32,000 bases of DNA from an uncultured Sporolactobacillaceae bacterium (GTDB lineage: Bacteria > Bacillota > Bacilli > Bacillales > Sporolactobacillaceae), in assembly GCA_963772845.1 (NCBI GenBank), contig CAVYYW010000027.1:39086-71085 (forward strand), read 5' to 3'. Below, one piece after another: positions 1 to 28,507 of the stretch. Every line of letters begins with the position of its first letter. Position 1 is the stretch's first letter. Below the pieces are notes generated by a model. The model worked only from the letters and a program-made list of their open reading frames with translations, had not been told where the DNA came from and searched no databases. The position numbers were made by a program, and so were the translations under genes.

Positions 1-753
1 GGACAAAGCGGAAGGACTCTGATTCAAGATCAGCAGGGACGAGGCCGTCTGCTTCCACGTATACGGCTTTCGTTGAATGCTTTTCGAACAGTTCGCTAAG
101 ATGTCCCTGGGTAACGACTTTTCCGTGGTCGATAATCGCGATATCGTCACATAACGTTTCGACTTCTTCCATATAGTGCGTGGAATAAATAATGGTGACT
201 CCTTCATTTCTCAGATCCTGGATCATTTCAAAAATATGATTGCGTGATTGGGGATCAATGCCGACCGTGGGTTCATCAAGGACCAGCAGCCGTGGTTTAT
301 GAAGCAAGGCAGCAGCGATATTAATACGTCTCTTCATGCCGCCTGAGAAATTCTTTACCGGCTCTCTGGCGCGGTCAACTAGTCCCGTATGCTCGAGAAC
401 TTCCTGAATGCGCTCTTTGAGTTGTTTACCTTTTATGCCGTACATTTCGCCGAAGAAAATTAAATTGTCCATCGCTGTCAATTTCTCATAAAGGAAATGG
501 TTTGTGGCACGTATCCAATTTGTTTTTGAACGTTCTTATCATTCTCTGTCAACGGTTCGCCGAACAGGGTAATGGATCCTTCTTTAAAGGTGTCAATGCC
601 TGTGATCAGGCGCATGGTTGTTGATTTTCCTGCTCCATTTGGACCAAGCAGGCCGAAGCATGATCCGGTGGAAACAGAAAAGGAAACATGATCCAAAGCA
701 AGCTTAGAACCAAACGATTTTTGAAGATCTTTGACTTCAAGAATTGAGTCCAT
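1..753 (-). pseudogene. ABC transporter ATP-binding protein. The C-terminus runs off the window start and the frame is broken by a 1-nt shift near 486-500.
   Basis: ORF 478-753 gives the N-terminus with Walker A GPNGAGKST. A different frame of 1-477 continues LYEKLTAMDNLIFFGEMYG...NFSGGMKRR...LLVLDEPTVGID (signature and Walker B). RBS AAAGGAG lies upstream of the ATG at 753. Confidence 0.85.
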
Positions 754-3345: not shown

Positions 3346-3493
3346 CCGGATCGTGGTTTAACAATCCTGTAACGTGTCAAGTTGAGCATTAGACAGGCAT
3401 ATTATTTCAAATTCTGTGGATATCTTTGTTATCGTAAAAGATGAATTAAAAAAATTAAATTAACTTTTGAAGCGAATAGAGGAGGGCGAAAAA

Positions 3494-4322
3494 ATGATCA
3501 GCAGTCTGACAGATCGTGTTGTTTTGAATAATGGTGTTGAAATGCCAAGGTTTGGACTTGGTGTTTATAAAGCAGAGGACGGCGAGGAAGTTAAGGAAGC
3601 GGTCAAAGCCGCTCTTGAAGCAGGATACCGAAGCATAGATACAGCCGCTTTTTATGATAATGAAAGCGGTGTGGGAGCTGCTATTAAGGAATCAGACGTT
3701 CCCCGTGAAGAAATATTTGTAACGACAAAAGTCTGGAATGATCAGCAGGGATACGATGAAACGTTAGCTGCTTTTAAAGAAAGCAAAGAAAAGCTAGGTC
3801 TGGATTACATTGACCTTTACCTGATTCACTGGCCAATCAAAGGGATAATTCACGGACACATGGCGTGCGCTTGAAAAGCTTTATAAAGACGGCGAAGTCA
3901 GAGCGATTGGTGTCAGTAATTTTAAACCGCATCATTTACAGGAACTTATGAAAGAAGCAGAATATGTTCCAGTGCTGAATCAGGTTGAATTTCATCCTCG
4001 TTTGACACAGGAAGAGACCCGTGCTTTTTGTTATGACAATAAAATTCAAATGGAAGCTTGGAGTCCACTGATGCGCGGAGGACTATTTGACAATGAAACG
4101 GTTAAAAATATCGCTGAAAAGCATGGTAAAACACCGGCTCAGGTCATTCTCCGCTGGGACCTTCAGCATGATTTCGTCACCATTCCAAAATCTGTCCATG
4201 CAAAACGGATCAAGGAAAACGCTGACGTGTTTAACTTCGAACTAACACAAAGCGACATGGATCAGATCGACGCCTTGAACAGAGATGAGCGGACAGGTCC
4301 GGATCCTGATGAAATGAGCTGA
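3494..4322 (+). pseudogene. Aldo/keto reductase (YtbE/YvgN-like glyoxal/methylglyoxal reductase type), frame broken near 3838-3851
   Basis: ORF 3467-3874 ends ...LIHWPIKG then goes out of frame. The +1 frame continues [25 protein letters not shown] and joins ORF 3948-4322 (NQVEFHPRLTQ...ILRWDLQH...IPKS). The likely start is ATG 3494 after GAGGAGGG. Confidence 0.85.
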
Positions 4323-6417: not shown

Positions 6418-6785
6418 TCAAAAGGTGAGTTGAGGGAAACCGAGGCGATTAGTGCCCTCCAAGGGTCAAAAAGGTGAGTTGAGGGAACCAACCGAGGCGA
6501 TTAGTGCCCTCCAAGGGTCAAAAAGCTGAAATTGATGGAATCCAAAGAGGCGTTGGAGGACAAAAAAGCGGCCAAAACCGAAATAAGTGGAATCCAACGA
6601 GGCGTTGGAGGACAAAAAAGCGGCAAAATCCGAAAATAGTGGAATCCAAAGAGGAGTTGGAGGACAAAAAAGCGCCCAAAACTGAAAAAGTGGAATCCAA
6701 AGAGGCGTTGGAGGACAAAAAAACGCCCAAAAGCCGAAAAAGTGGAATCAACCGAGGTGTTTGATGCCTGCCAAGCGCCAAAAAG
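6418..6785. repeat. Tandem array of about 7 units with about 52 bp period (units of 44-52 bp)
   Basis: The core unit is AAAAAAGCGSCMAAAASYGAAAWAGTGGAATCCAAMGAGGCGTTGGAGGAC. Unit starts are 6418, 6466, 6518, 6562, 6614, 6666 and 6717. Each unit carries a small hairpin (TCCAA..TTGGA or GAGGG..CCCTC) and an A6-7 tract. Confidence 0.9.
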
Positions 6786-6856
6786 CTACTTAATATCATC
6801 GTTAATGGCTTTTGATCATTTTGTTGTTCGTAACATTTTTTTTGAAAAGATTAAAA

Positions 6857-6899
6857 AAACCGCCCTGTTTAGCTGTAAAAGAGCTAAATGGGGCGGTTT
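6857..6899 (-). terminator. Strong hairpin that reads as a Rho-independent terminator on the minus strand, with no gene immediately upstream
   Basis: AAACCGCCC..TTTAGCT..AGCTAAA..GGGCGGTTT forms 9+7 bp of stem. On the minus strand it is followed by T7 (plus-strand A-run 6853-6859). Confidence 0.7.
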
Positions 6900-7061: not shown

Positions 7062-7221
7062 CGCCCAAATTGTCTAGCTGCGGTTGCCATTCCTTCGGAT
7101 CCTTCAATTTCCCTTCAGAGGAAAAGAGCTCCTCTTTGGAAAACCTCCAGGCTCTTTCAGGACTAATCGGGCAACCTCGCTTTTCGCTACTCCAGTCTCT
7201 GGGAAAGAAATCTGCGACCAT

Positions 7222-7529
7222 GTGCTCCTGCGTCTGCTAGACATGCTTCGAAGCGGGATTCCTCGTCGCAATTCGCAGTCGTTCGAGAGGTGATGCTTGT
7301 GCTCCTGCGTCTGCTAGACATGCTTCGAAGCGGGATTCCTCGTCGCAATTCGCAGTCGTTCGAGAGGTGATGCTTGTGCTCCTGCGTCTGCTAGACATGC
7401 TTCGAAGCGGGATTCCTCGTCGCAATTCGCAGTCGTTCGAGAGGTGATGCTTGTGCTCCTGCGTCTGCTAGACATGCTTCGAAGCGGGATTCCTCGTCGC
7501 AACTCGTAGTCGTTCGAGATGTGATGCTC
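7222..7529. repeat. Tandem array of 4 x 77 bp
   Basis: Units 7222-7298, 7299-7375 and 7376-7452 are identical. Unit 7453-7529 differs at 4 positions and matches the single copies at 26522-26598 and 24640-24724 (the latter with indels). Confidence 0.95.
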
Positions 7530-7648
7530 GTGCCTGTCGGAGCTGACATGTGCGGCTCCGCTTTTCTTTGTCTAGTTCCGCTTGCCAGCCCTTCGGTTCC
7601 TTCAACTTTCTTCGGTGGACAAAAAGCGTCCCCCTCAGAAAGTCTCCA

Positions 7649-7756
7649 GGCTCCATCAGGGCTACCCCGGCAAGCTTCACTTTTCATTGTCTAGCTATGC
7701 CGCACAGCTCCTCGGGGTCACTTCGAAAGCCCTTCAAAAATGAAAGAGCCATTTTT
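7649..7756. repeat. 108-bp direct repeat, copy 2
   Basis: It is identical to 6954-7061, at an offset of 695 bp. Confidence 0.9.
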
Positions 7757-8299
7757 TTGGTCTTCCTCCAGTGCCTGTCGGAGCTGACATGTGCGGCTTC
7801 GCTTTTCTTCTAATCCAGTGTGACTGGTTTGGTTTTTCTTTGGGCGTTTTCTTCCTCTTAGTTCGAGAACGCCATGCTGAAAGGAGGCGCGGATCTCTTC
7901 AGAAGAAACCATATATGGAAGCGTAACCGTTCTTTCAGCCTGGTGAAAGCGGCGTTCTTTATGGAAGTAATGCTGCTGGTCATTTTCAACCGTATGTTCT
8001 TGGTGGTCGGTTACTGAAATATGGACTTTGTCTCCAAAAGCTTCAACCTGGATCCGATCTCGATCAACGCCGGGAAGCTCGGCCTGAATGACCCACTCTC
8101 TGGCCGTTTCGTACATATCAATAGGAATTGAACGATTAAAGGGATACGTTTTTTGGAAAAAATTGTCCATAGAATGAAGCAGCGAAGATTTGCCGTTTCC
8201 CTTAAAGAAGCCGTTCATCTGCTCCATAATATCGTGCCCAAGAGGGAAAAAAGTTTCTTTGTTATCCGATGGTTTTTCCTTGTTGTCAGCCATCGTCAT
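7718..8299 (-). CDS. Hsp20/alpha-crystallin family protein (CotM/CotP-like). The last ~31 codons of the annotated ORF read into a repeat module, and the true stop is possibly TAG at 7810-7812.
   Basis: An alpha-crystallin-like core is present (PIDMYETAREWVIQAELPGV...GVLELR). RBS AAGGAGG lies upstream of the ATG at 8299. The C-terminal tail 7718-7812 is encoded by the shared module GTGCCTGTCGGAGCTGACATGTGCGG. Confidence 0.8.
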   Translation of the reverse strand: MTMADNKEKPSDNKETFFPLGHDIMEQMNGFFKGNGKSSLLHSMDNFFQKTYPFNRSIPIDMYETAREWVIQAELPGVDRDRIQVEAFGDKVHISVTDHQEHTVENDQQHYFHKERRFHQAERTVTLPYMVSSEEIRASFQHGVLELRGRKRPKKNQTSHTGLEEKRSRTCQLRQALEEDQKNGSFIFEGLSK

Positions 8300-11164: not shown

Positions 11165-11406
11165 AGATGGGGTAGAGGTCGCGGTTTTTAATAGTAGGGC
11201 GCTGAGACGATGGATGTCTTTGAAGCTGCCTGAAAGGATCAACCGCCGAAGTCTGGACAGGTATCCACACCTGACAGGCTGGGGCTGTTCCCAAACAGGG
11301 GCAGAACTGTCACATGGAGTATTTTTTCCATGTGTTGAGCTATCGATGGAAGGTCTGGATGGGGCTTTTTTCTGCCATCGTGTCGAGCATTCGCGATGGT
11401 TTTTTT
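11165..11406 (+). promoter_or_regulatory. Lysine riboswitch (L-box) with a terminator expression platform
   Basis: Conserved L-box blocks appear in order: AGAGGTCGCG, AGTAGGGC, GAGACGATGGAT, CTGAAAGG, CGCCGAAG, GCTGG, ACTGTCA. These are followed by a terminator stem CCATCGTG (11375-11382) / CGCGATGG (11392-11399) plus T7. An alternative pairing partner ATCGATGG sits at 11342-11349. Confidence 0.85.
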
Positions 11407-11452
11407 AATTCCCTTTTTACCTTCCATAAGTCGAATCGAAAGGAAGAGATTT

Positions 11453-12916
11453 ATGGATCAGCAGCAAAGAACAGACAGCAGTGCAGCAACAGGGACTTCT
11501 TTAAAAAGAGGGCTTAAATCACGGCATATGACGATGATCGCTTTAGGAGGCGCTATTGGCACAGGGTTATTCCTTGCAAGCGGCACCGCGATTCACTCAG
11601 CAGGACCAGGAGGCGCTTTGCTCGCCTATGGGATTATTGGCATCATGGTGTTTTTCTTAATGACAAGTCTTGGAGAACTGGCTTCTTATATGCCAACAAG
11701 CGGTTCGTTCAGTACGTACGCAACCCGGTTCATTGACCCGGCGTTAGGATTCGCTCTTGGCTGGAATTACTGGTACAACTGGGCCATCACGCTTGCAGCA
11801 GAGCTTTCTGCAGCAACGCTTGTGATGAAGTTTTGGTTCCCGCATACACCTTCTATATTATGGAGCGGAATATTTCTTCTGCTTATCTTTGGACTCAATG
11901 TATTATCTGTAAAAGGATACGGCGAGTCAGAATATTGGTTCGCTATAATTAAAGTCGCTACCGTCATCATTTTCATTATTGTTGGCTTGCTGATGCTTAT
12001 TGGCATCCTGCATGGCGAGACGAGAGGCTTCGGCAACTTTACCAGAGGCGATGCCCCTTTTCATGGCGGTCTTTTAGCGGCCTTTGGTGTTTTCCTGGCT
12101 GCGGGCTTTTCTTTTCAAGGAACAGAATTGCTAGGAGTCAGTGCCGGTGAAAGCGAGGACCCTGCTAAAAATGTTCCAAAAGCGGTACGCAGTATATTCT
12201 GGAGGATTCTATTATTCTATATTTTTGCCATTCTAATTATCGGATTAATTATTCCTTATACAAGCCCAAACCTTGCAAGCGATAATGTGCTGGTCAGCCC
12301 CTTCACTCTTGTTTTCAAGCATGCGGGTCTCGCCATTGCTGCTTCCGTGATGAACGCAGTCATTTTAACTGCCGTCTTATCCGCGGGCAATTCGGGATTA
12401 TACGCATCCACAAGAATGCTGTATGCTCTGGCGCGGGAAGGAAAGGCTCCGAAGTTTCTAGGGTTTGTTAATCAGCGCGGAATTCCAATCTATGCTTTGC
12501 TGATTACCACAGCAGTGGGGATGCTTGCGTTCTTAGCATCACTATTCGGGGATGGGGCCGTCTACATTTGGCTTCTAAATGCCTCAGGGATGTCCGGATT
12601 CATTGCATGGCTCGGGATTGCGGTCAGCCATTACCGCTTTAGAAAAGCTTATCTTCATCAGGGGCATGATCTGAAAAATCTTCCGTATCGTGCAAAATGG
12701 TTTCCGTTCGGACCGATTTTTGCTTTTCTGGTTTGTTTAGTTGTCGTTATTGGACAGAACTACCAGGCGTTTATGACAGGAGCGATCGACTGGAAAGGGA
12801 TTGTGGTTTCATATATTGGGCTCCCGCTGTTTTTAATCGTGTGGTTCAGTTATAAGTGGTCTAAAAAAACAAAACTGCTGTCCCTTGATCAATGTGATGT
12901 CACACCCCATGAATAA
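11453..12916 (+). CDS. lysP: Amino acid permease of the APC family, LysP-type lysine permease
   Basis: Strong similarity along the whole length to E. coli LysP as I recall it (LKSRHMTMIALGGAIGTGLF, SFQGTEL, NAVILTAVLSAGNSGLYASTRMLY, SHYRFR). The start at ATG 11453 follows AAGGAAG. It sits behind an L-box. Confidence 0.85.
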   Translation: MDQQQRTDSSAATGTSLKRGLKSRHMTMIALGGAIGTGLFLASGTAIHSAGPGGALLAYGIIGIMVFFLMTSLGELASYMPTSGSFSTYATRFIDPALGFALGWNYWYNWAITLAAELSAATLVMKFWFPHTPSILWSGIFLLLIFGLNVLSVKGYGESEYWFAIIKVATVIIFIIVGLLMLIGILHGETRGFGNFTRGDAPFHGGLLAAFGVFLAAGFSFQGTELLGVSAGESEDPAKNVPKAVRSIFWRILLFYIFAILIIGLIIPYTSPNLASDNVLVSPFTLVFKHAGLAIAASVMNAVILTAVLSAGNSGLYASTRMLYALAREGKAPKFLGFVNQRGIPIYALLITTAVGMLAFLASLFGDGAVYIWLLNASGMSGFIAWLGIAVSHYRFRKAYLHQGHDLKNLPYRAKWFPFGPIFAFLVCLVVVIGQNYQAFMTGAIDWKGIVVSYIGLPLFLIVWFSYKWSKKTKLLSLDQCDVTPHE

Positions 12917-13061: not shown

Positions 13062-14537
13062 GTGAGAGATGTGAAACCGGAAAAAGGAGCAACAGTAACA
13101 GATCCAAACGGATTGCAAAGGGGTCTGAAAGCACGGCATCTAACAATGATATCACTTGGAGGCGCAATCGGGACCGGTCTGTTTCTTGGGAGCGGCGCAG
13201 CCATTCATACGGCTGGTCCAGGCGGAGCGCTTACCGCATATATCATTATCGGCATCATGGTGTACTTCATTATGACGAGCTTGGGGGAGCTTGCTTCATT
13301 TATGCCTGTCAGCGGCTCCTTCAGTACGTATGCCACCCGTTTTATTGATCCGGCACTTGGCTTCGCATTAGGCTGGAATTATTGGTACAGCTGGGCAATT
13401 ACGCTTGCAGCTGAATTATCTGCATCAACGCTTGTCATGAAATTTTGGTTTCCTGACACACCCTCTCTTTTATGGAGCGGACTCTTTCTGCTAATCATAT
13501 TTCTTTTGAATTATTTATCCGTAAAAGGTTATGGAGAAGGGGAATACTGGTTTTCCTTTATCAAGGTAGCCACGATTATCATCTTTATTATCGTTGGTAT
13601 CTTAATGATTATCGGTGTGTTTAATGGAAAAGCGATAGGATTTCAGAATTTGACCGTTAAAAATGCTCCGTTTAGCGGAGGGTTTCTTGCTACTCTCAGT
13701 ATCTTCTTGGCTGCAGGCTTCTCTTTTCAAGGAACTGAAATTGTTGGGGTTGCCGCAGGAGAAAGTGAAAATCCAAGAAAAACGGTTCCAAAAGCAGTCC
13801 GAACCATCTTTTGGCGTATTCTGCTCTTTTATGTTCTCGCCATTCTTGTCATTGGCCTGATCATTCCTTACACAAACAGTTCACTGGAAAGCGACAGCAT
13901 ACTCGTGAGTCCGTTTACCTTGGTCTTTAAAAAGGCAGGTCTTGCATTTGCAGCCTCAGTCATGAACGCCGTTATCTTAACAGCGGTGCTGTCTGCCGGT
14001 AATTCAAGTCTCTATGCTTCAACCAGAATGCTCTATGCAATGGCGAAAGACGGCCAGGCTCCTAAATTTCTTGCAAAACTTAATAAACGCGGCATACCGA
14101 TCGGAGCACTCCTTATAACAACATTTGTAGGAATGTTAGCCTTCCTGGCTTCCATCTTCGGCGACGGTGCGATTTATATCTGGTTATTAAATGCTTCAGG
14201 AGTCACAGGGTTTATTTTCTGGCTCGGTATTGCAATGAGCCATTATCGGTTCAGAAAAGCCTTCGTCGCTCAAGGGCGTTCGCTGGATGAACTGCCATAC
14301 AAAGCAAAATGGTATCCGTTCGGACCGATTTTCGCGATCGTGGTTTGTCTTATAGTCATCCTTGCACAGGATTATCAAGCCTTTTTAAACAGCCATATCG
14401 ACTGGATGAGTCTTGCTGTCGCTTATTTAGGCATTCCGCTGTTCCTTGTTATGTGGCTTGGTTATAAATTTATTAAAAAGACAAAAGTCGTTCCGCTTCA
14501 AGAATGTGAACTTGATGCTGAAGAATATAACGACTGA
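13062..14537 (+). CDS. Amino acid permease, LysP-type paralog
   Basis: It is roughly three-quarters identical by eye to 11453-12916. GTG at 13071 has better spacing to GAGGAG than GTG at 13062. Confidence 0.85.
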   Translation: MRDVKPEKGATVTDPNGLQRGLKARHLTMISLGGAIGTGLFLGSGAAIHTAGPGGALTAYIIIGIMVYFIMTSLGELASFMPVSGSFSTYATRFIDPALGFALGWNYWYSWAITLAAELSASTLVMKFWFPDTPSLLWSGLFLLIIFLLNYLSVKGYGEGEYWFSFIKVATIIIFIIVGILMIIGVFNGKAIGFQNLTVKNAPFSGGFLATLSIFLAAGFSFQGTEIVGVAAGESENPRKTVPKAVRTIFWRILLFYVLAILVIGLIIPYTNSSLESDSILVSPFTLVFKKAGLAFAASVMNAVILTAVLSAGNSSLYASTRMLYAMAKDGQAPKFLAKLNKRGIPIGALLITTFVGMLAFLASIFGDGAIYIWLLNASGVTGFIFWLGIAMSHYRFRKAFVAQGRSLDELPYKAKWYPFGPIFAIVVCLIVILAQDYQAFLNSHIDWMSLAVAYLGIPLFLVMWLGYKFIKKTKVVPLQECELDAEEYND

Positions 14538-15592: not shown

Positions 15593-15700
15593 GCTCTATA
15601 AAATTTTAAGTAGTCCCTGCGGGGTGTTCTTGGAACGCTGATGAGGCCACTGAAAGAGACCACCTTTTTTGATGTGTTTGTTGATTTCCGCTCTAGACTG

Positions 15701-15952
15701 CTCGCTTTCCACGGGCACGGCCTCAGCTAACTTTGGCGTGGGCTCTTTGTGCCAAAGTGGATCTTCGAGCGCGTGCTGCTTCCGTAGGACTTGAAACAGC
15801 CTCCTTGAATCCACACCGCACGAAGAAAATGCGTTTGCTTTAGATTGAAAGCTGAAATACCCTCGCTTTCCACGGGCACGGCCTCAGCTAACTTTGGCGT
15901 GGTCTCCTTGTTTGCCAAAGTGGATCTTCGGACGCGTGCTGTTTCCGTAGGA
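15701..15952. repeat. Two direct copies (161-bp period) of a ~90-nt imperfectly palindromic module
   Basis: Copies are at 15701-15789 and 15862-15952 (CTCGCTTTCCACGGGCACGGCCTCAGCTAACTTTGGC..GCCAAAGTGGATCTTCG..CGTGCTG.TTCCGTAGGA). An inverted copy is at 26242-26332. The central hairpin is CTTTGGC/GCCAAAG. Confidence 0.9.
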
Positions 15953-16225
15953 GTCTCGGGTATTTCTAGCTTTCAATCTGCATGCGCATTTCGAGGAGTC
16001 ATGGATATTTCTGGCTTTCAATTGTAGGCATGCATATTTTCGAGGAGTTTCGGGTATTTCTGGCTTTCTCTAGGCATGCGCATTTTCGAGGAGTCTCGGG
16101 TATTTGCTTTCAAAGCATGCAATTTTCGAGCGCATTGCTGCATTTTCGAGGAGTCTCGGGTATTTCTAGCTTTCAACTCAGGGCATGCGTATTTTCGAGG
16201 AGTCTCGCGTCTTCCGCTTCAATCA
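15951..16225. repeat. Tandem array of 6 units with 45-60 bp period
   Basis: The unit is GAGTCTCGGGTATTTCTAGCTTTCAA..GCATGC..ATTTTCGAG. Unit starts are 15951, 15996, 16045, 16091, 16151 and 16200. Confidence 0.9.
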
Positions 16226-16498
16226 ACGTCATGTGATGTCCTTTAGAAGTCAATTATTGCTACGCATGCCTTCAGGATGTGAATAGGTTCGCCGGTGGCA
16301 CAGGACGTGACAAATTTAGCCAAACTTTCTACATAATTTTGCGCTGCCTTTAGAATTCCAGGGGACTTTGCGTTATTCTTTGATTAAATCTTAAAAAAGA
16401 TCAATAATATAGAAGTTTTTCAGTTGCCTCAGTCTGATCCCGCAGATGTCTCACCCTTCAGATAAATTGGCCCAAAAATGCAATAATCAGCCCGAAGA

Positions 16499-16547
16499 AC
16501 AAAAAAGCGTGCCACACAATTCTCTTTTGAGAATGTGTCGGCACGCT
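16499..16547 (-). terminator. Strong hairpin that reads as a minus-strand Rho-independent terminator inside island B
   Basis: AGCGTGCC.ACACA.TTCTC / GAGAATGTGT.GGCACGCT forms a ~18-bp imperfect stem. On the minus strand it is followed by T6 (plus-strand A-run 16501-16506). Confidence 0.7.
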
Positions 16548-16732
16548 GCTTTAAAAAGACTTTTTTTGGCATCTCGCTGATTGCGCTGAAATTGAAATAA
16601 CACCTTTTGGAACCACACCGACAGAACGCTGTATTGGCAAAGGCAGTCAAAAAGAGAGTGAAATGTCCTTAATGAGAGGGAGGAAGACGTTCGTCGGGGC
16701 AAATGCGCATCCCTATTGATGAAAGCTAAAAA

Positions 16733-16884
16733 CTCGAAACTCCTTGAAAAAGCACATGCTCACTGAAAGGCAGGAATACCTGAGACTTCTCGAAAATGCT
16801 TTGTGCTCCATTATAAAAATGGAAATACTTGAGACTCCTCGAAATTGCCCGTGCTTATTGAAAGCAAGAAATACCCGAGACTCC
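16733..16884. repeat. Three units of the 15951-16225 array in inverted orientation
   Basis: Units 16733-16789, 16790-16838 and 16839-16884 end in GAAATACCCGAGACTCC, the reverse complement of GGAGTCTCGGGTATTTC. Confidence 0.85.
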
Positions 16885-17100
16885 TGCAAGAATCAGCGTT
16901 CCAAGCGAGACCCCACAGCCACAATGTCTTATGTGAGGAGGCTCGCGGAACGCCTGCGGAAAGCGAGGGTATTTCCGCTTTCAATTATGACATCGCATTT
17001 TCTTCGTGCGAAATCACAAAAATCGGAATTTTCTAGTGTCAGTTTCGCTATTTTAGTTGTTTACAAGTATTTATTAAGCGTTATTCGGCCATTTTTTTGC

Positions 17101-18668
17101 TTATATCGTGTAGCCTCCGAGCATAAGCGTCACAAATAGCGTGTCAATAATGATAAAGTACACAATCTCAGGCAGCATCTCCCAGTACTCTGTTCTAACA
17201 AAACGTGTGATCAGACCTGAAACCAGCGCTGCTGCTACGGCGATCAGATAAGGACTGCCGGTGAAAGTTCAAATAAAAAGGCAGTTCTGATGGGATGAGC
17301 TTTGGTATGAGAAAATCGTACAGGTAGATGAACTGCGAAATGAAAAAGATAATATAAGTGCCCCATCGGACAAAGGGGGCGCCATTTTCGACAGCTGTCG
17401 TCTTTGCAAAATAGCAAATGAAATAAAAGAGCAAGGCAATGAGCGAATAAATTAGTGCAAAGAACACTGCAAAAATATTAACCGACAGTATGATCAGGGC
17501 ATTTGAGATGGCCTGGCCGATATCATGCTGAGTCGCTTTGATACTTTTGGCAATCGCCTTGGCGTTCGTACTTGCGGCATAAAGTTGATAATGATTTGCT
17601 TTTTGATAACCAAGCCAGATAATCAAGTTATTGCTCAATTCCTTTGGCTTGATCGACTGGTTATTCGTACTGTGACGTTCAGCAAGAGCCGTCCCATTAT
17701 TATTGAGAATTGCAGAATAGACGACCTGTCCGTCATGATGAAATGACAGGGTACCTTGTGATGCGAACGTAATCTTATCCTTGCCGTTGATGACCGTGTA
17801 GCTAAGATCATTTAATTCCTGGATAGGTTCATGACCATCGGCTGTGTAGACATCAAAATGATGTTCGGACCATTCCGGTTTTCCGGCTGCAATCGCATGA
17901 GCGCTGACATCGGACATCATGTAAGTGGTTGTAATCGTGCTGCTGTAAGTCGTCTTTGAATATAACAAATGCACAGAATTTGGCGTCACAGAAAACATAA
18001 AACCGCTGTATCGTGCAGAGGGATTATTAAACGTGTGAAGCAGTGAATGCGGATACTGCTTGCCGTCTTTTTTAAAGTAAATAACTTTAGTTTCTTTATC
18101 CTTGTTTAACGTTGCAATGAAATCCTGACTGTTCGCACTGGTGACAAGTTCTGATACTGGAAGATTAAAAGATCCAAGGGTCTTAATATCTCCCAGTAGC
18201 AGGGTCAGCTTCTTTCACGATCGGCCCTGAAGAATAAATAATGTGGTCATTGTCTGCGGGCATAAGCTGTGCAGCATGTGAATCAAGTATTTTGGTATGA
18301 CCCTTCGTATACTCAGTGAGCTTGCCGTTTTTTATGTAAATTAACGTGCTTCCTTTAGCCCAGATGCCATCATTGTCCGGGTGAACAGGGTAGGTATGGT
18401 TGGTCAAAATATCCATGGAAGGGGAGACCTCGACTTCAGAGATTCCCTTCTTCGTTACGGCATAAATGGCGGTATTGCTCCCGCGTTTCTGTGTGAAAAG
18501 CTTTGCTGAATCCGTCATGTCCTTCATTGGAAGGGGAATGGAGCGGCTCCAGTTCTTCGAAGGCGGGGTTTCTAAATTGTTCAGTTGCTTTAATGTAAAC
18601 AAACCGAAAATGATAATCAGCACAATCAGGGGTAAAAACCATACGGAAATTTTTCTGAATAGATTCAT
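17101..18668 (-). pseudogene. Membrane protein of unknown function (N-terminal TM, extracytoplasmic domain, C-terminal multi-TM region), split over three frames
   Basis: ORF 18183-18668 continues in another frame as GDIKTLGSFNLPVSELVTSANSQ..., joining ORF 17195-17998. After ~17268 a third frame continues TFTGSPYLIAVAAALVSGLITRFV...GGYTI* to the stop at 17101-17103. The candidate shift sites are CCC 18192-18194 and TT 17268-17269. Confidence 0.7.
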
Positions 18669-24187: not shown

Positions 24188-24219
24188 CAAAAATAAAAAG
24201 CCGCATTTTCATGGGCTTT
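24188..24219 (-). terminator. Candidate minus-strand terminator 542 nt beyond the gerQ stop
   Basis: AAAGCC (24197-24202) pairs with GGCTTT (24214-24219). On the minus strand it is followed by TTTTTATTTT. Confidence 0.5.
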
Positions 24220-24763
24220 ATTGGATGGTCATGCTATTTAATTTATCTGAGGAGGGAAAGGAATTCTCTCTGAAAACCCTACCGGCTATTTCATGGTTAT
24301 TCAGGCAAGCACCAGATTGAGCTATTCTTGGATTAAATCTTAAAAAAGGCAAATAAATACAGAAGTTTTTCAGTGATGTGTAGGAGCTAACAAGTGCGGC
24401 TCTTTTCTTTGTCTAGTTACGCTTGCCAGCCCTTCGGTTCCTTCAACTTTCTTTACAGAGAACAAAAAGCGTTCTCTTCAGAAAGTCTCCAGGCTCCTTC
24501 AGGGCTATTCAGGCAAGCTTCACTTTTCTTTGTCTAGTTCCGCCGCACAGCTCCTCGGGGTCACTTCGAAAGCCCTTCAAAAATGAAAAAGCCATTTTTT
24601 GGTCTTCCTCCATTTTCCGGGAAAGAAATCTGGAACCATGTGCTCCTGCCAGTCTGCTAGTCATGCTTCGAAGCGATTGGATTCCTCGTCGCAACTCAAG
24701 TAGTACGTTCGAGAAGTGATGCTCGTGCCTGTCGGAGCTGATATGTGCGGCTTCACTTTTCTA
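24220..24763. repeat. Repeat island C, with the same module order and orientation as the right part of island A and the end of island D
   Basis: It holds the 108-bp block homolog (24492-24600), the 77-nt unit homolog (24640-24724), and the terminal module (24725-24763) ending on the gerQ stop codon. Confidence 0.9.
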
Positions 24764-25420
24764 GGCATATGGGTAGGAGTAATTAATCGGGCCTTTGAAG
24801 GTGATATAGTCTACATAAATAAGCGGGATTAGGTAGCGTGTTCCTTGAGGGCCGCCGTCGTTAATAATCACGTGATCGCGTCCAGCTGCTTCAACTTCTC
24901 CCTTAAACACTTTAGCGTTCCATTCAGAGTTGTTTTCAAATGTACAGTAAACAGTGGCGACTTTTTCAAGATTGAGTCTTAAAATGTTCTCTATATAAGA
25001 TTGCTGGTTGGCAGGCAGTGGTAAAGATCCAGGAGGTGGCATCATTTGACCGCCTTGCCCTTGCATTGGCTGACCTGGCTGTTGCATCATTTGGCCGCCT
25101 TGCATTTGCATTGGCTGACCTGGCTGCTGCATCATTTGACCGCCTTGCATTTGCCCACCAGGCATCATTGGGTAGCCACCCATCATTTGCTGAGGTTGCA
25201 TTCCTTGACCTTGTTGCCGAAAATCCGGATAACCGCCAAAATCTTGAGGCATATATGGTATGCCGCCTTGCATTCCTCCCATTTGTGGATCCATTCCGTA
25301 CTGTGACATCGGATACTGATAGCCATCTGACGGTGAACCTTGGGAAGTCCCTCCTTGCTGGGACTGCTGCCGCTCTTCGGATTGCCACCCATCCTGTGGA
25401 TTTTGTCTTTGCTCACTCAT
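24761..25420 (-). CDS. gerQ: Spore coat protein GerQ (YwdL)
   Basis: The C-terminal domain SYIENILRLN..KVATVYCTFENNSEWNAKVFKGEVEAAGRDHVIIND matches B. subtilis GerQ as I recall it. The N-terminus is Q/G/M/P-rich. It neighbours the ywdK-like gene. Confidence 0.85.
   Translation of the reverse strand: MSEQRQNPQDGWQSEERQQSQQGGTSQGSPSDGYQYPMSQYGMDPQMGGMQGGIPYMPQDFGGYPDFRQQGQGMQPQQMMGGYPMMPGGQMQGGQMMQQPGQPMQMQGGQMMQQPGQPMQGQGGQMMPPPGSLPLPANQQSYIENILRLNLEKVATVYCTFENNSEWNAKVFKGEVEAAGRDHVIINDGGPQGTRYLIPLIYVDYITFKGPINYSYPYA
25040..25160. repeat. In-frame 45-bp tandem repeat inside gerQ (about 2.7 units)
   Basis: It encodes GGQMMQQPGQPMQ(M/G)Q repeats. Units are 25040-25084 and 25085-25129, then a partial unit. 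Confidence 0.85.
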
Positions 25421-25659
25421 GGAAATTCACTCCAATCCAATTGATAATGTCGACTTCCCGACTCTCAGATCATGTATATGTTTCAAGCCAGGCTTTTAAT
25501 ACAAAAAACACTTTGAAAGTCTGCCGATTAACGATGACAGGGCCTTCAAAGCGATGATTATAAAGTATTAATTATTAAGATACCGATTGTCGAGTTTGTT
25601 TTAACATCGGAGGATCCTGCTGAAAAAGTTTCTTTTTCGCTTCGAGCCGAGCATTAGAA

Positions 25660-26641
25660 AGTTATCACTTGCCGTGGGGCGGAACGAGAGCCATGCTTTA
25701 ATTAAATGCGGCGCTGCAGGGTGGCATTTGGAGCCCAGCAAGAGCCGAAAACCTGAATTGAGGGCATTATAAGTTGCCGTTGGAGCCCATTGTGCCTCTG
25801 TAACTCGAAAGGATGGCCGTAAAGGAAGCGTTTAGGACCGTCTGAGACATGAAAACTCGAATAAATGGCCGTAAAGGTAGCGTTTAGGACCAACCAAGAT
25901 TCCCATTACCAACTAAATGCCGAACTGCCGGGAATGTTCGAGATTCCTCGAAAATGCTTTTTGTTTCATTACAAAAAAGAAATACCCAAGGTTCTCTTGA
26001 CCTCAAGGTATTTCCACTTTCTCATAGATTGCTTTGCCATTTTCATCGTGCGATGTGGTTCCAAAGACGTTATTCAAGTCCTGCGGAATCAGCGATCCAA
26101 GCGAGACCCCGCAGCGCAAACGTTGCCTTAAAGCGCGAGGAGGCTCGCGGATCGCCCGCGGAAAGCGAGGGTATTTCCGCTTTCAATGGATGGAAACCGC
26201 ATTTTCTTCGTGCGGTGTGAATTCAAGGATGCTGTTTCAAGTCCTACGGAACCAGCACGCGTCCGAAGATCCACTTTGGCGTACAAAGAGACCATGCCAA
26301 AGTTAGCTGAGGGCGTGCCCGTGGAAAGCGAGCAGCCTAGAGCGGCAATCAACAACCACGACGACACCGGGGGACTTTTTCAGCCGACTTTGTCGGAGCT
26401 CCACGTGCGGCTCCGCTTTTCTTTGTCTAGTTACGCTTGCCAGCCCTTCGGTTCCTTCAGAGCTAATCAGGCAAGCTCGCTTTTCGCGACTCCAGTGCTT
26501 GGGAAAGAAGTCTGTAACCATGTGCTCCTGCGTCTGCTAGTCATGCTTCGAAGCGGGATTCCTCGTCGCAACTCGTAGTCGTTCGAGATGTGATGCTCGT
26601 GCCTGTCGGAGCTGACATGTGCGACTTCGCTTTTCTTGCTA
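25660..26641. repeat. Repeat island D, which joins both module families
   Basis: 25660-25905 is a degenerate ~52-nt periodic stretch. 25940-26390 carries island-B-type modules (inverted relative to the left part of B). 26391-26641 carries island-A/C-type modules and ends on the hemQ stop codon. Confidence 0.85.
25973..26014 (-). terminator. Candidate minus-strand terminator 625 nt beyond the hemQ stop
   Basis: GAAATACC (25979-25986) pairs with GGTATTTC (26007-26014). On the minus strand it is followed by T6 (plus-strand A-run 25973-25978). The arms themselves resemble repeat-family sequence. Confidence 0.5.
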
Positions 26642-27388
26642 CTCTACGCTGAGCATTTGTGAGAAGCGCTGCGGGTCAAGGAGGACACCAGTGTAAAAGG
26701 AGCCGAATTCTCCGTACTGTGCACTGACTCTGTCAAAGCGCATTTCATATACTAGTTTCTTAAACTGAAGGACATCCTCAGAAAATAGCGTAACGCCCCA
26801 TTCCCAGTCATCAAGCCCAACCGATCCGGTGATGACCTGTTTCACTTTGCCTGCATAGCTTCGCCCAATCATGCCATGGCTTCGCATCATTTCACGGCGT
26901 TCATCCATTGACAGCATGTACCAGTTGTCATCACCATCCCGGCGCTTGTCCATCGGATAGAAAGAAGCGTATTTGGTTCTCGGCAAAATGGGCTTCAATC
27001 TAGCCTGGATGCGTGGATCCTCTGAAGGATCACTGTCTTTAGGTGCCATATAATTGCTAAGCTCAACAACGGAAACATAAGAGTAAGCAGGAATCGTAAA
27101 CGCTGCTAGCCTTGTTTTATTAAACGCTGTTTCGATATCATTAAGCTCTGCCATTGTCGGTCTCAGCCACATCAGCATAAAGTCTGCTTTTTGTCCCACG
27201 ATGGAGTAAAAGGCATAGCTGCCCTGTTTTTGCTGCATGACGGTATCCCATTTATCAAGGAAAGCATTGAATTCCTGAATCGCTGCCTCACGCTCGTCGC
27301 TCGAGACGTTTTTCCATGAAATCCAATCAATTGTCCGGAAATCGTGCAGACAGTACCATCCGTCCAGTGTTTTTGCTGCTTCAATCAT
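26639..27388 (-). CDS. hemQ: Coproheme decarboxylase HemQ/ChdC (chlorite dismutase family, YwfI)
   Basis: The protein is 249 aa with motifs [14 protein letters not shown] and [10 protein letters not shown]. It lies divergent from pta, as in B. subtilis. Confidence 0.9.
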
Positions 27389-27534: not shown

Positions 27535-28507
27535 ATGACGAAATTGTTCGAAAACATGAAGGCAATTGTTAAAAAAGCAAAGCCTCTGATTGTATTCCCT
27601 GAAGGAGGAGACTCGCGCATTCAGGAGGCTGCTGTAAAGCTTGCCGAAGAAGATCTCTTAACACCTATCTTAATCGGAAAGATTGAAGCCATGCCTGATC
27701 CTATAAAACGTCTGACAGAACAAGGACGCATGCAGGTCCGTTATCATTTAAATGAAGAAAAACGCGAAGAACTGGCCGAGGCGCTCGTTGCTCGCCGCAA
27801 AGGTAAAATCACGCTTGATCAGGCAACAGAATTGCTTTCTGACGAAAATTACTACGGAACCATGCTCGTTTACTCTGGTGCTGCGGATGGTCTAGTCAGT
27901 GGTGCCTGCCACTCAACGGCTAACACGGTCAGACCAGCACTGCAGATCATCAAAACCAAGCCTGGAGTGAATAAGACATCCGGAGCTTTTATTATGGTAA
28001 AAGGGGAGGAGCAGTTGGTTTTTGCAGACTGTGCCATCAATATTTCACCAACATCTGAAGAGCTTGCTGAAATTGCAATGGAAAGTGCCAGAACGGCAAG
28101 AGCTTTTGGCATTGACCCCAAGGTGGCCATGCTCAGCTTTTCAACGAGAGGTTCTGCAAAAGCGCCTGAAGCTGAAAAAGTGACAGAGGCTGTCAGAATC
28201 ATCAATGCGGGCGCCGGTTGATTTTCCTGTAGACGGCGAACTGCAATTCGATGCAGCCTATGTACCGGATGTGGCGAATAAAAAAGCGCCAAACTCTCAG
28301 CTTGAAGGGCGGGCAAATGTGTTTGTTTTTCCAAGTCTTGAAGCAGGTAACATTGGATATAAAATGGTGCAGCGGCTTGGCGGTTTTGAGGCTGTCGGAC
28401 CGATTCTTCAAGGCTTGAACCAGCCTGTAAATGATCTGTCGCGAGGATGCTCAACCGAAGACGTTTACAACCTTGCCCTGATCACAGCACGCCAAAGCAT
28501 GCAATAA
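27535..28507 (+). pseudogene. pta: Phosphate acetyltransferase, frame broken at the GGG run 28209-28211
   Basis: ORF 27535-28221 (..IVFPEGGDSRI..ADGLVSGACHSTANTVRPALQII..) stops after RIINAGAG. The +1 frame continues [19 protein letters not shown]...[12 protein letters not shown]...NDLSRGC. Removing one G restores [15 protein letters not shown]. Confidence 0.9.

Follow-up and report, generated by a model that had tools for sequence, protein, structure and literature searches.

Repeat arrays downstream of hsp20, gerQ and hemQ

The stretch of DNA analysed here (the window, 32,000 nt from an uncultured member of the Sporolactobacillaceae) contains three large repeat arrays, A, B and C, each located 3' of a minus-strand gene, namely hsp20, gerQ and hemQ/chdC. 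The arrays share a 40-nt module, S1, for which a profile search yielded six copies in the window, all in a single orientation. Three copies form the gene-side ends of the arrays, where they were seen as GTGCCTGTCGGAGCTGAYATGTGCGRCTTCRCTTTTCT..CTA after hsp20, gerQ and hemQ, and three lie inside the arrays. Five matches to the module's 22-nt core were counted at ≤3 mismatches, with 0 expected in shuffled sequence, and S1 copies at the three loci, which lie up to 19 kb apart, differ from each other by one or two mismatches. On the gene-sense (minus) strand S1 is made up of the leader ACAAAGAAAAG followed by GCGGAGCCGCACATGTCAGCTCCGACAGGCAC. A GAAG variant is common to the three gene-proximal copies while the internal copies carry GGAG, which suggests a common source copy for the three proximal modules. 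The genes and S1 copies are:

7718-8299, minus strand: hsp20 ORF of 193 aa, of which 31 codons read into the repeat; ancestral stop at 7810-7812, probable extra base within 7813-7828
24761-25420, minus strand: gerQ, 219 aa, with a full-length C-terminus (...YSYPYA, against ...YYYPYG in an orthologue)
26639-27388, minus strand: hemQ/chdC, 249 aa, with a full-length C-terminus (...QMLSVE, as in the 94% orthologue and most relatives)
7771-7812, plus strand: S1 at hsp20; hairpin CGGAGC..GCTTCG, then CTTTTCTT, then CTA, the complement of the ancestral hsp20 TAG
24725-24763, plus strand: S1 at gerQ; the CTA at 24761-24763 is the in-frame TAG
26599-26641, plus strand: S1 at hemQ; the CTA at 26639-26641 is the in-frame TAG
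7527-7575, plus strand: internal S1 with the full leader ACAAAGAAAAG and, before it on the gene-sense strand, a beta unit and CTAG
24372-24417, plus strand: internal S1, diverged, core with 3 mismatches
26385-26431, plus strand: internal S1, diverged

Elsewhere in the window a lysine riboswitch (RF00168, 101.8 bits, 11165-11350, plus strand) was found upstream of the first of two tandem amino-acid permease paralogues (11396-12916 and 13062-14537), which show ~73% nucleotide identity over 300 nt.

Modular anatomy and folding of the arrays

On the gene-sense strand the array units end in CTAG and belong to two recurring types, alpha and beta. Alpha has the layout S1-(S2)n-S3-S4 with n from 0 to 4, S2 being a 77-nt module present in 0, 1, 1 and 4 copies; S4 contains the complement of S1 (GGAGCTGTGCGGC), and pairing of S1 with S4 gives a long hairpin. 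Beta is a hairpin of ~120 nt with the arms GCTTGCC...GGCAAGC. One end of the units reads AGACAAAGAAAAG... and the other ...RCTAG. The complementary arms are long (GCCGCACA..CAGCTCC versus GGAGCTG..TGTGCGGC), and the 5' end additionally bears an unpaired, A-rich leader of 9-11 nt. The main elements are:

7691-7812, minus strand: alpha element at hsp20, S1 + TGGAG + S4 without S2 and S3; hairpin of 122 nt, -46.9 kcal/mol, z -4.3
24534-24763, minus strand: full alpha element at gerQ, with S1, one S2, S3 (24608-24638) and S4 (24534-24607)
26427-26641, minus strand: element at hemQ, with S1, one S2, S3 (26490-26520) and an internally deleted beta, beta' (26427-26489)
7221-7528, minus strand: S2 tandem, four copies of 77 nt
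7572-7690, minus strand: beta hairpin unit, -53.1 kcal/mol; other copies at 24413-24533 and 7074-7189

Folding gave long hairpins for the units (z-scores of -4 to -7). With just three beta copies compared, compensatory double changes were already seen at 6 of 36 pairs, the outermost AGY/RCT pair among them; because this outermost pair covaries, the CT in every CTAG is part of the hairpin. Each gene-proximal element has a TAG on both flanks, the 3' TAG being part of the conserved, base-paired RCTAG end. With unit lengths of 119-230 nt and three loci within 32 kb, the units are short, non-coding and dispersed, as is the case for MITEs. The arrays themselves are mosaics in which higher-order orders such as alpha-beta-alpha-beta and S3-beta' recur.

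The ORFs inside the repeats matched no protein family and no homologue, and a comparison of the arrays with Rfam gave nothing at the gathering score, only chance-level matches at E of 1 or less. No transposase genes were found in the 32-kb window. At the three sites no unambiguous target duplication could be read, nor was a terminal inverted repeat demonstrated at the extreme ends of the elements.

Several further repeat families were noted in the same DNA. A tandem family of ~52 nt (4-5 copies, GGCGTTGGAGGACAAAAAAGCGG...) occupies 6438-6790, between the terminator of an SDR gene and array A. The HIBADH/hyp267 intergenic region (15600-17140) and the far half of the hemQ-gerQ spacer (25700-26336) have unrelated repeats in common, among them a 51-nt unit with 96% identity (16935-16985 and 26137-26187), and tandem units of 45-50 nt are present at 15949-16222. 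A module of ~45 nt (TTGGATTAAATCTTAAAAAAG..AGAAGTTTTTCAG) was found both in the far part of array B (24330-24375) and in the 15600-17140 repeat region (16375-16425). Intergenic regions of this genome are mosaics of many repeat families.

Terminator-like character of S1 and position of native terminators

Read on the plus strand, S1 consists of a short G+C-rich hairpin with CTTTTCTTTG after it. The local hairpin reaches -8.8 to -13.4 kcal/mol on this strand versus -3.5 to -11.2 kcal/mol on the other; five of six copies fold more strongly on the plus strand and the sixth ties at -11.2 on both. A terminator scan, in which a hit means a consensus match, flagged four of the six copies as terminator-like on the plus strand (7538-7560, 7779-7801, 24734-24754 and 26394-26415), leaving the hemQ-proximal copy (26599-26641) and the copy at 24372-24417 unflagged. 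Judged by its sequence, S1 is intrinsic-terminator-like and would face the neighbouring gene's 3' end in antisense.

On the sense strand of the three genes the following terminators were located:

6853-6899, minus strand: hsp20 sense-strand terminator, hairpin + T7, at the far end of array A and weakly S1-like itself
25503-25551, minus strand: native hemQ terminator at the far end of array C, aligning with the terminators of repeat-free orthologues
24189-24219, minus strand: weak candidate for the gerQ terminator, read by eye beyond array B and unflagged by the terminator scan

Since terminators persist at their far ends, arrays A and C lie between the stop codon and the terminator of the respective gene. 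Native terminators of other genes in the window come as close to the stop as S1 does: the pta/AKR2 terminator is flush with the stop (TAA directly followed by AGAAAAGCCGAAGCGG) and no more than 1 nt separates the OYE/LplA terminator from the LplA stop. Direct contact with a stop is therefore nothing special in this window. As hemQ and gerQ form a tandem rather than a convergent pair, it is not obvious how S1 would serve as a convergent terminator between them.

Repeat-free orthologous loci and gene ends

The closest named relatives belong to the Sporolactobacillaceae, with Scopulibacillus at 80% HemQ identity, and repeat-free syntenic loci were recovered for all three genes. In these orthologues the intergenic regions measure 50 to 148 nt and consist of the stop codon, a short spacer and the terminator. 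The hsp20 orthologue with 88% amino acid identity (L082) ends in ...KKNQSVPLE TAG, followed after 3 nt by the terminator hairpin within an intergenic region of 50 nt, while a second one (L083, 64%) ends in ...SIRLD TAA; the frame-corrected hsp20 of the window ends in ...VTLD, compared with ...VPLE and ...IRLD. For hemQ, the stop is TAA in L086 (94%), L087 (89%) and L089 and TAG in L091, L092 and L094, at the same codon throughout. For gerQ it is TGA in L087, TAA in L089, L091 and L094, and TAG in L092. TAG thus terminates one of two repeat-free orthologues of hsp20, three of six of hemQ and one of five of gerQ. The extra length of GerQ in the window (219 aa versus 174-205 aa in relatives) comes from three 45-nt tandem repeats (25029-25163) in its Q/M/G-rich N-terminal half.

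These loci bear on the idea, put forward in the preliminary description, that insertions removed the 3' portions of the genes and that the repeat supplied a new stop. Repeat homology does reach the stop, the conserved core takes in the AG of the gerQ TAG, and pneumococcal BOX repeats do encode stop codons, but the C-termini agree in length and sequence with those of the repeat-free orthologues and the stop lies at the same codon, being TAG in several of them. All three genes thus keep their native ends, and truncation is refuted by these alignments. Repeat-free orthologues with the same TAG at the same codon, named in that description as evidence against it, were found in part: the codon agrees, whereas the stop is TAG in some and TAA or TGA in others. 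As a control for stop identity we used nine repeat-free genes, giving 12 comparisons at the same divergence. Stop identity was kept in 6 of the 12, and third-codon positions were only ~54% identical. With half of the control stops exchanged, TAA or TGA in relatives is uninformative on donation, and TAG at the same codon in several repeat-free relatives makes a donated stop unnecessary. A TAG donated by the repeat, as read from the TAA and TGA stops of relatives, was dropped on these two grounds.

Two resemblances in the flanks of relatives were also noted. The hemQ gene of Scopulibacillus cellulosilyticus (L091:10748-10765) ends in TAG ACAAAAGAAA, near to the internal junction TAG ACAAAGAAAAG, yet the locus is repeat-free; this likeness could be due to chance in an A-rich flank or could be a hint on the origin of the leader. 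In L092 and L094, gerQ has a native terminator (GAAAAGGCGCCACA...TGTGCGCC) that was considered as a source of the alpha hairpin; this derivation was rejected as the resemblance is too short.

Distribution outside the window

Neither S1 nor alpha or beta was found in ~100 kb of DNA from relatives: an nhmmer profile of S1 run against ~100 kb of syntenic DNA recovered only the six copies of the window, and the only BLAST match was an S2-like tandem in S. cellulosilyticus. This tandem (L091:15744-15952; 82-nt units, 2.6 copies) starts 35 nt after the TAA of a DUF1499 gene and is followed by a terminator on the same strand; its orientation relative to the upstream gene is opposite to that seen in the window. 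Its presence implies that at least the S2 module predates the lineage of the window. A distant search of a plasmid collection gave no match to the repeat, metagenome scans with the S1 core and the beta core gave none either, and the concatenated repeat-encoded peptides matched no ORFs elsewhere. The pattern GTCGGAGCTNNNNNGTGCGRCT, searched across genome contigs, yielded 81 chance matches in high-G+C genomes and none in Bacillales, the pattern being too degenerate.

Single-base insertions in hsp20 and other genes

Removal of a single A from the A5 run had been proposed in the preliminary description to restore hsp20. Comparison with the 88% orthologue places the indel most likely elsewhere: KKNQ is in frame in the window and matches L082 both as protein and as DNA (AAGAAAAACCAA in the window versus AAGAAAAATCAA in L082), and a frameshift within the A5 run was rejected on this alignment as improbable. 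Between KKNQ and the stop there are 16 nt in the window versus 15 nt in L082. Because KKNQ is conserved in frame, the extra base probably lies 3' of the A5 run, most likely in ACCAGTC...GAT (7813-7828). The restored end ...VTLD, by contrast, was well predicted, since orthologues end in ...SVPLE and ...SIRLD; the corrected C-terminus, (T/P)VTLD, retains the V-x-L motif.

Two further genes carry +1 insertions, an aldo/keto reductase (3467-4322, extra T near 3836) and pta (27535-28507, extra G near 28210). Three genes are thus affected, about one per 10 kb, and none of the three insertions lies in a homopolymer. They are likely to reflect assembly error or general gene decay rather than the repeat. 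They may be residual assembly errors, or pseudogenes building up alongside repeat expansion. A 91-aa ORF (478-753, minus strand) matches only the first half of ABC_tran (profile positions 1-70 of 137) and is possibly another broken gene. For annotation this means that the hsp20 ORF is artificially lengthened into the repeat by a +1 indel, with two more such indels present in the window.

Register of the junctions and choice of stop codon

The conserved core common to all copies starts at AGAAAAG, and the distance from the end of the TAG to this point was compared between junctions:

gerQ: T-AGAAAAG, TAG end at -2 nt
hsp20: TAG-A-AGAAAAG, TAG end at +1 nt
hemQ: TAG-CA-AGAAAAG, TAG end at +2 nt
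six internal junctions: CTAG-ACAA-AGAAAAG, TAG end at +5 nt

The module was initially described as ending exactly on the TAG of all three genes. It does adjoin all three stops, but in a register of -2, +1 and +2. Agreement was complete on the gerQ and hemQ CTA triplets, which by the ORF coordinates (24761-25420 and 26639-27388, minus strand) are the in-frame TAG stops, on the hsp20 CTA, which is one base out of frame in the present sequence (8299-7812 = 487), and on the ends of the internal copies, TTTGTCTAG. As the distance from TAG to core varies, the host stop and the internal CTAG correspond to different positions of the repeat, contrary to the earlier proposal that the terminal CTAG of the element coincides with the stop: the internal TAG stands at +5 nt from the core. 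Leaders are shortened in all three gene-proximal copies (by 2, 3 and 6 nt) and intact in six of seven internal leaders. The uniform orientation stressed in the same description holds within the window (6/6), but the related S2 tandem of S. cellulosilyticus stands opposite to its upstream gene.

TAG ends 5 of the 26 other genes in the window (19%), and its presence in all three repeat-flanked genes has a hypergeometric p of ~0.015 (post hoc, n = 3). Transcription units also end with TAG stops at 17195 and 30872, where no element is present. The tetranucleotide CTAG is scarce in the window, with 38 observed versus ~122 expected, and 15 of the 38 (~40%) fall inside the arrays, which make up 8% of the sequence. 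In the loci of relatives CTAG is similarly under-represented (8/47, 18/50 and 8/74). We infer that the TAGs next to the arrays are host stop codons and that a preference for TAG is at most weak.

The same data were weighed for sequence-specific transposition into TAG, CTAG or TA, with MITE- or PATE-like units mobilised in trans by elements of the IS630, IS5 or IS200/IS605 type. IS630-type elements use TA within CTAG, IS5-type elements use YTAR, and the IS200/IS605 type inserts as a single strand 3' of a fixed short motif. Under such targeting, TAG stops would be among the few tolerated TAG sites, and the CTAG at the end of each unit would recreate the target and so give rise to arrays. This would agree with the TAG preceding 10 of 11 unit leaders, with the TAG...TAG around each gene-proximal element, with the rarity of CTAG outside the arrays and with the use of TAG by all three host genes, set against 19% elsewhere in the window. 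That IS630 prefers TA within CTAG is documented in a passage of PMC2170065 that cites Tenzen and Ohtsubo (1991). IS630/Tc1-type MITEs such as RUP and Correia-like elements, whose target is TA (for IS630 CTAG), resemble the present units in their CTAG boundaries and in being short, structured and non-coding, but here no clean TA duplication is visible, no inverted repeats were made out at the extreme ends and the register of the junctions varies. The uniform orientation is as expected for strand-specific insertion of the IS200/IS605 type and, together with the TAG 5' of the leaders, would be in line with an IS200/IS605-derived PATE, which inserts 3' of a fixed tetra- or pentanucleotide, at a set distance from its subterminal hairpin; the orientation of units within one array is, however, not independent evidence, and a TAG-to-core distance that varies from -2 to +5 nt is at odds with a precise cut. 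Moreover, the CT of CTAG pairs and covaries within the hairpin, which makes it part of the unit and not a duplicated target, no unambiguous target duplication is readable, and the TAG stops at 17195 and 30872 are free of elements. On balance we regard targeted transposition as somewhat unlikely.

Comparison with known repeats and origin of the arrays

By analogy, the closest precedents are the BOX and SPRITE repeats of pneumococcus. BOX (boxA-boxBn-boxC, Streptococcus pneumoniae) likewise has end modules that pair and an internal module with variable tandem copies, is non-coding and is found at gene 3' ends, a likeness drawn here from architecture and literature description only. BOX repeats encode the stop of 36 pneumococcal CDSs with no evidence of truncation (PMC3049150). 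Differences lie in the host (Lactobacillales versus Bacillales here) and in the arrangement: the present units follow one another head to tail, along with those of a second hairpin family, beta, in arrays that reach ~1 kb. SPRITE is a dispersed terminator-like repeat, a stem followed by a U-rich tract, enriched near CDS 3' ends and especially near those of convergent CDSs (PMC3049150). S1 on the plus strand similarly shows a G+C-rich stem and a T-tract near CDS 3' ends, as a consensus match, but it is one module of a longer palindrome, its T-tract faces the adjacent gene in antisense and its function as a terminator is putative. The REP/BIME and REPIN repeats of proteobacteria share with our units the clustering of imperfect palindromes in transcribed 3' regions between stop and terminator, and the preservation of hairpins by compensatory changes. 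They belong to another phylum, and REP units alternate in orientation, measure ~35 nt and have a linked RAYT gene, whereas the units described here have one orientation and ~120 nt.

The arrays could also have arisen without any transposition, as terminator-derived hairpins spread by illegitimate or homeologous recombination in the A-rich tracts after stops and expanded by local tandem duplication, in which case the contact with stops and the three TAGs would have come about as by-products or by chance. The leaders at the three junctions are ragged in length and do resemble microhomology joints in an A-rich tract, and native flanks can be A-rich and leader-like, as after hemQ of S. cellulosilyticus (TAG ACAAAAGAAA) and AKR2 (TAA AGAAAAGCC). 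The mosaic arrays with their recurring orders, the variable S2 copy number and the frequency of TAG at these codons in relatives fit as well. Recombination would leave unexplained, however, that stop and far-end terminator are cleanly retained at all three sites, and near-identical S1 copies at loci up to 19 kb apart, absent from relatives that are saturated at synonymous positions, point to recent dispersal by an active process. We therefore hold this origin to be unlikely.

The explanation that we favour, with a probability of about one in two, is a modular, non-coding, terminator-like palindromic repeat of the BOX/SPRITE type that lies after pre-existing stop codons, its arrays having been inserted before the native terminators. 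It builds on the anatomy of the repeat, the empty sites, the intact C-termini, the covariation in the hairpins and the native terminators at the same flush position. S1 is the A-rich leader plus the 5' arm of the S1-(77-nt S2)n-S3-S4 palindrome, and three near-identical copies of one sub-variant (GAAG) are found directly after the genes' own stops, each proximal S1 heading an array of related, CTAG-bounded hairpin units between the host stop codon and the native terminator. The family may be a present or former non-autonomous mobile repeat of the BOX/SPRITE kind. Surviving insertions would occupy the A-rich stretch directly 3' of stops because a gene would not survive an insertion further upstream and because, in this compact genome, terminators start there. 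Arrays would then have grown through tandem duplication, or else through renewed insertion at the terminal CTAG of each unit. The shortened leaders of the proximal copies could be accounted for only by later deletion, and it counts against this explanation that there are three independent sites only and that TAG at three of three hints at a more specific process.

One further reading would be a mobile terminator-like S1/alpha element homing to TAG stops or to the junction of stop and terminator, flush, in fixed orientation and with the protein untouched. To our knowledge, stop-codon-directed targeting is undescribed for bacterial repeats, and we consider homing quite unlikely here; if it took place, the host gene would gain a structured 3' UTR and a terminator facing it in antisense.

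If the favoured reading of a BOX/SPRITE-like repeat placed after existing stops is right, the arrays would represent a new family of modular, terminator-like intergenic repeats in Sporolactobacillaceae, which inflates intergenic regions from 50-150 nt to 0.6-1.5 kb and provides ordinary genes such as hsp20, gerQ and hemQ with long structured 3' UTRs. The phenomenon known from BOX and SPRITE, of repeats lying flush with stop codons or overlapping them while the proteins remain whole, would then reach beyond the streptococci into a lineage of spore-formers.
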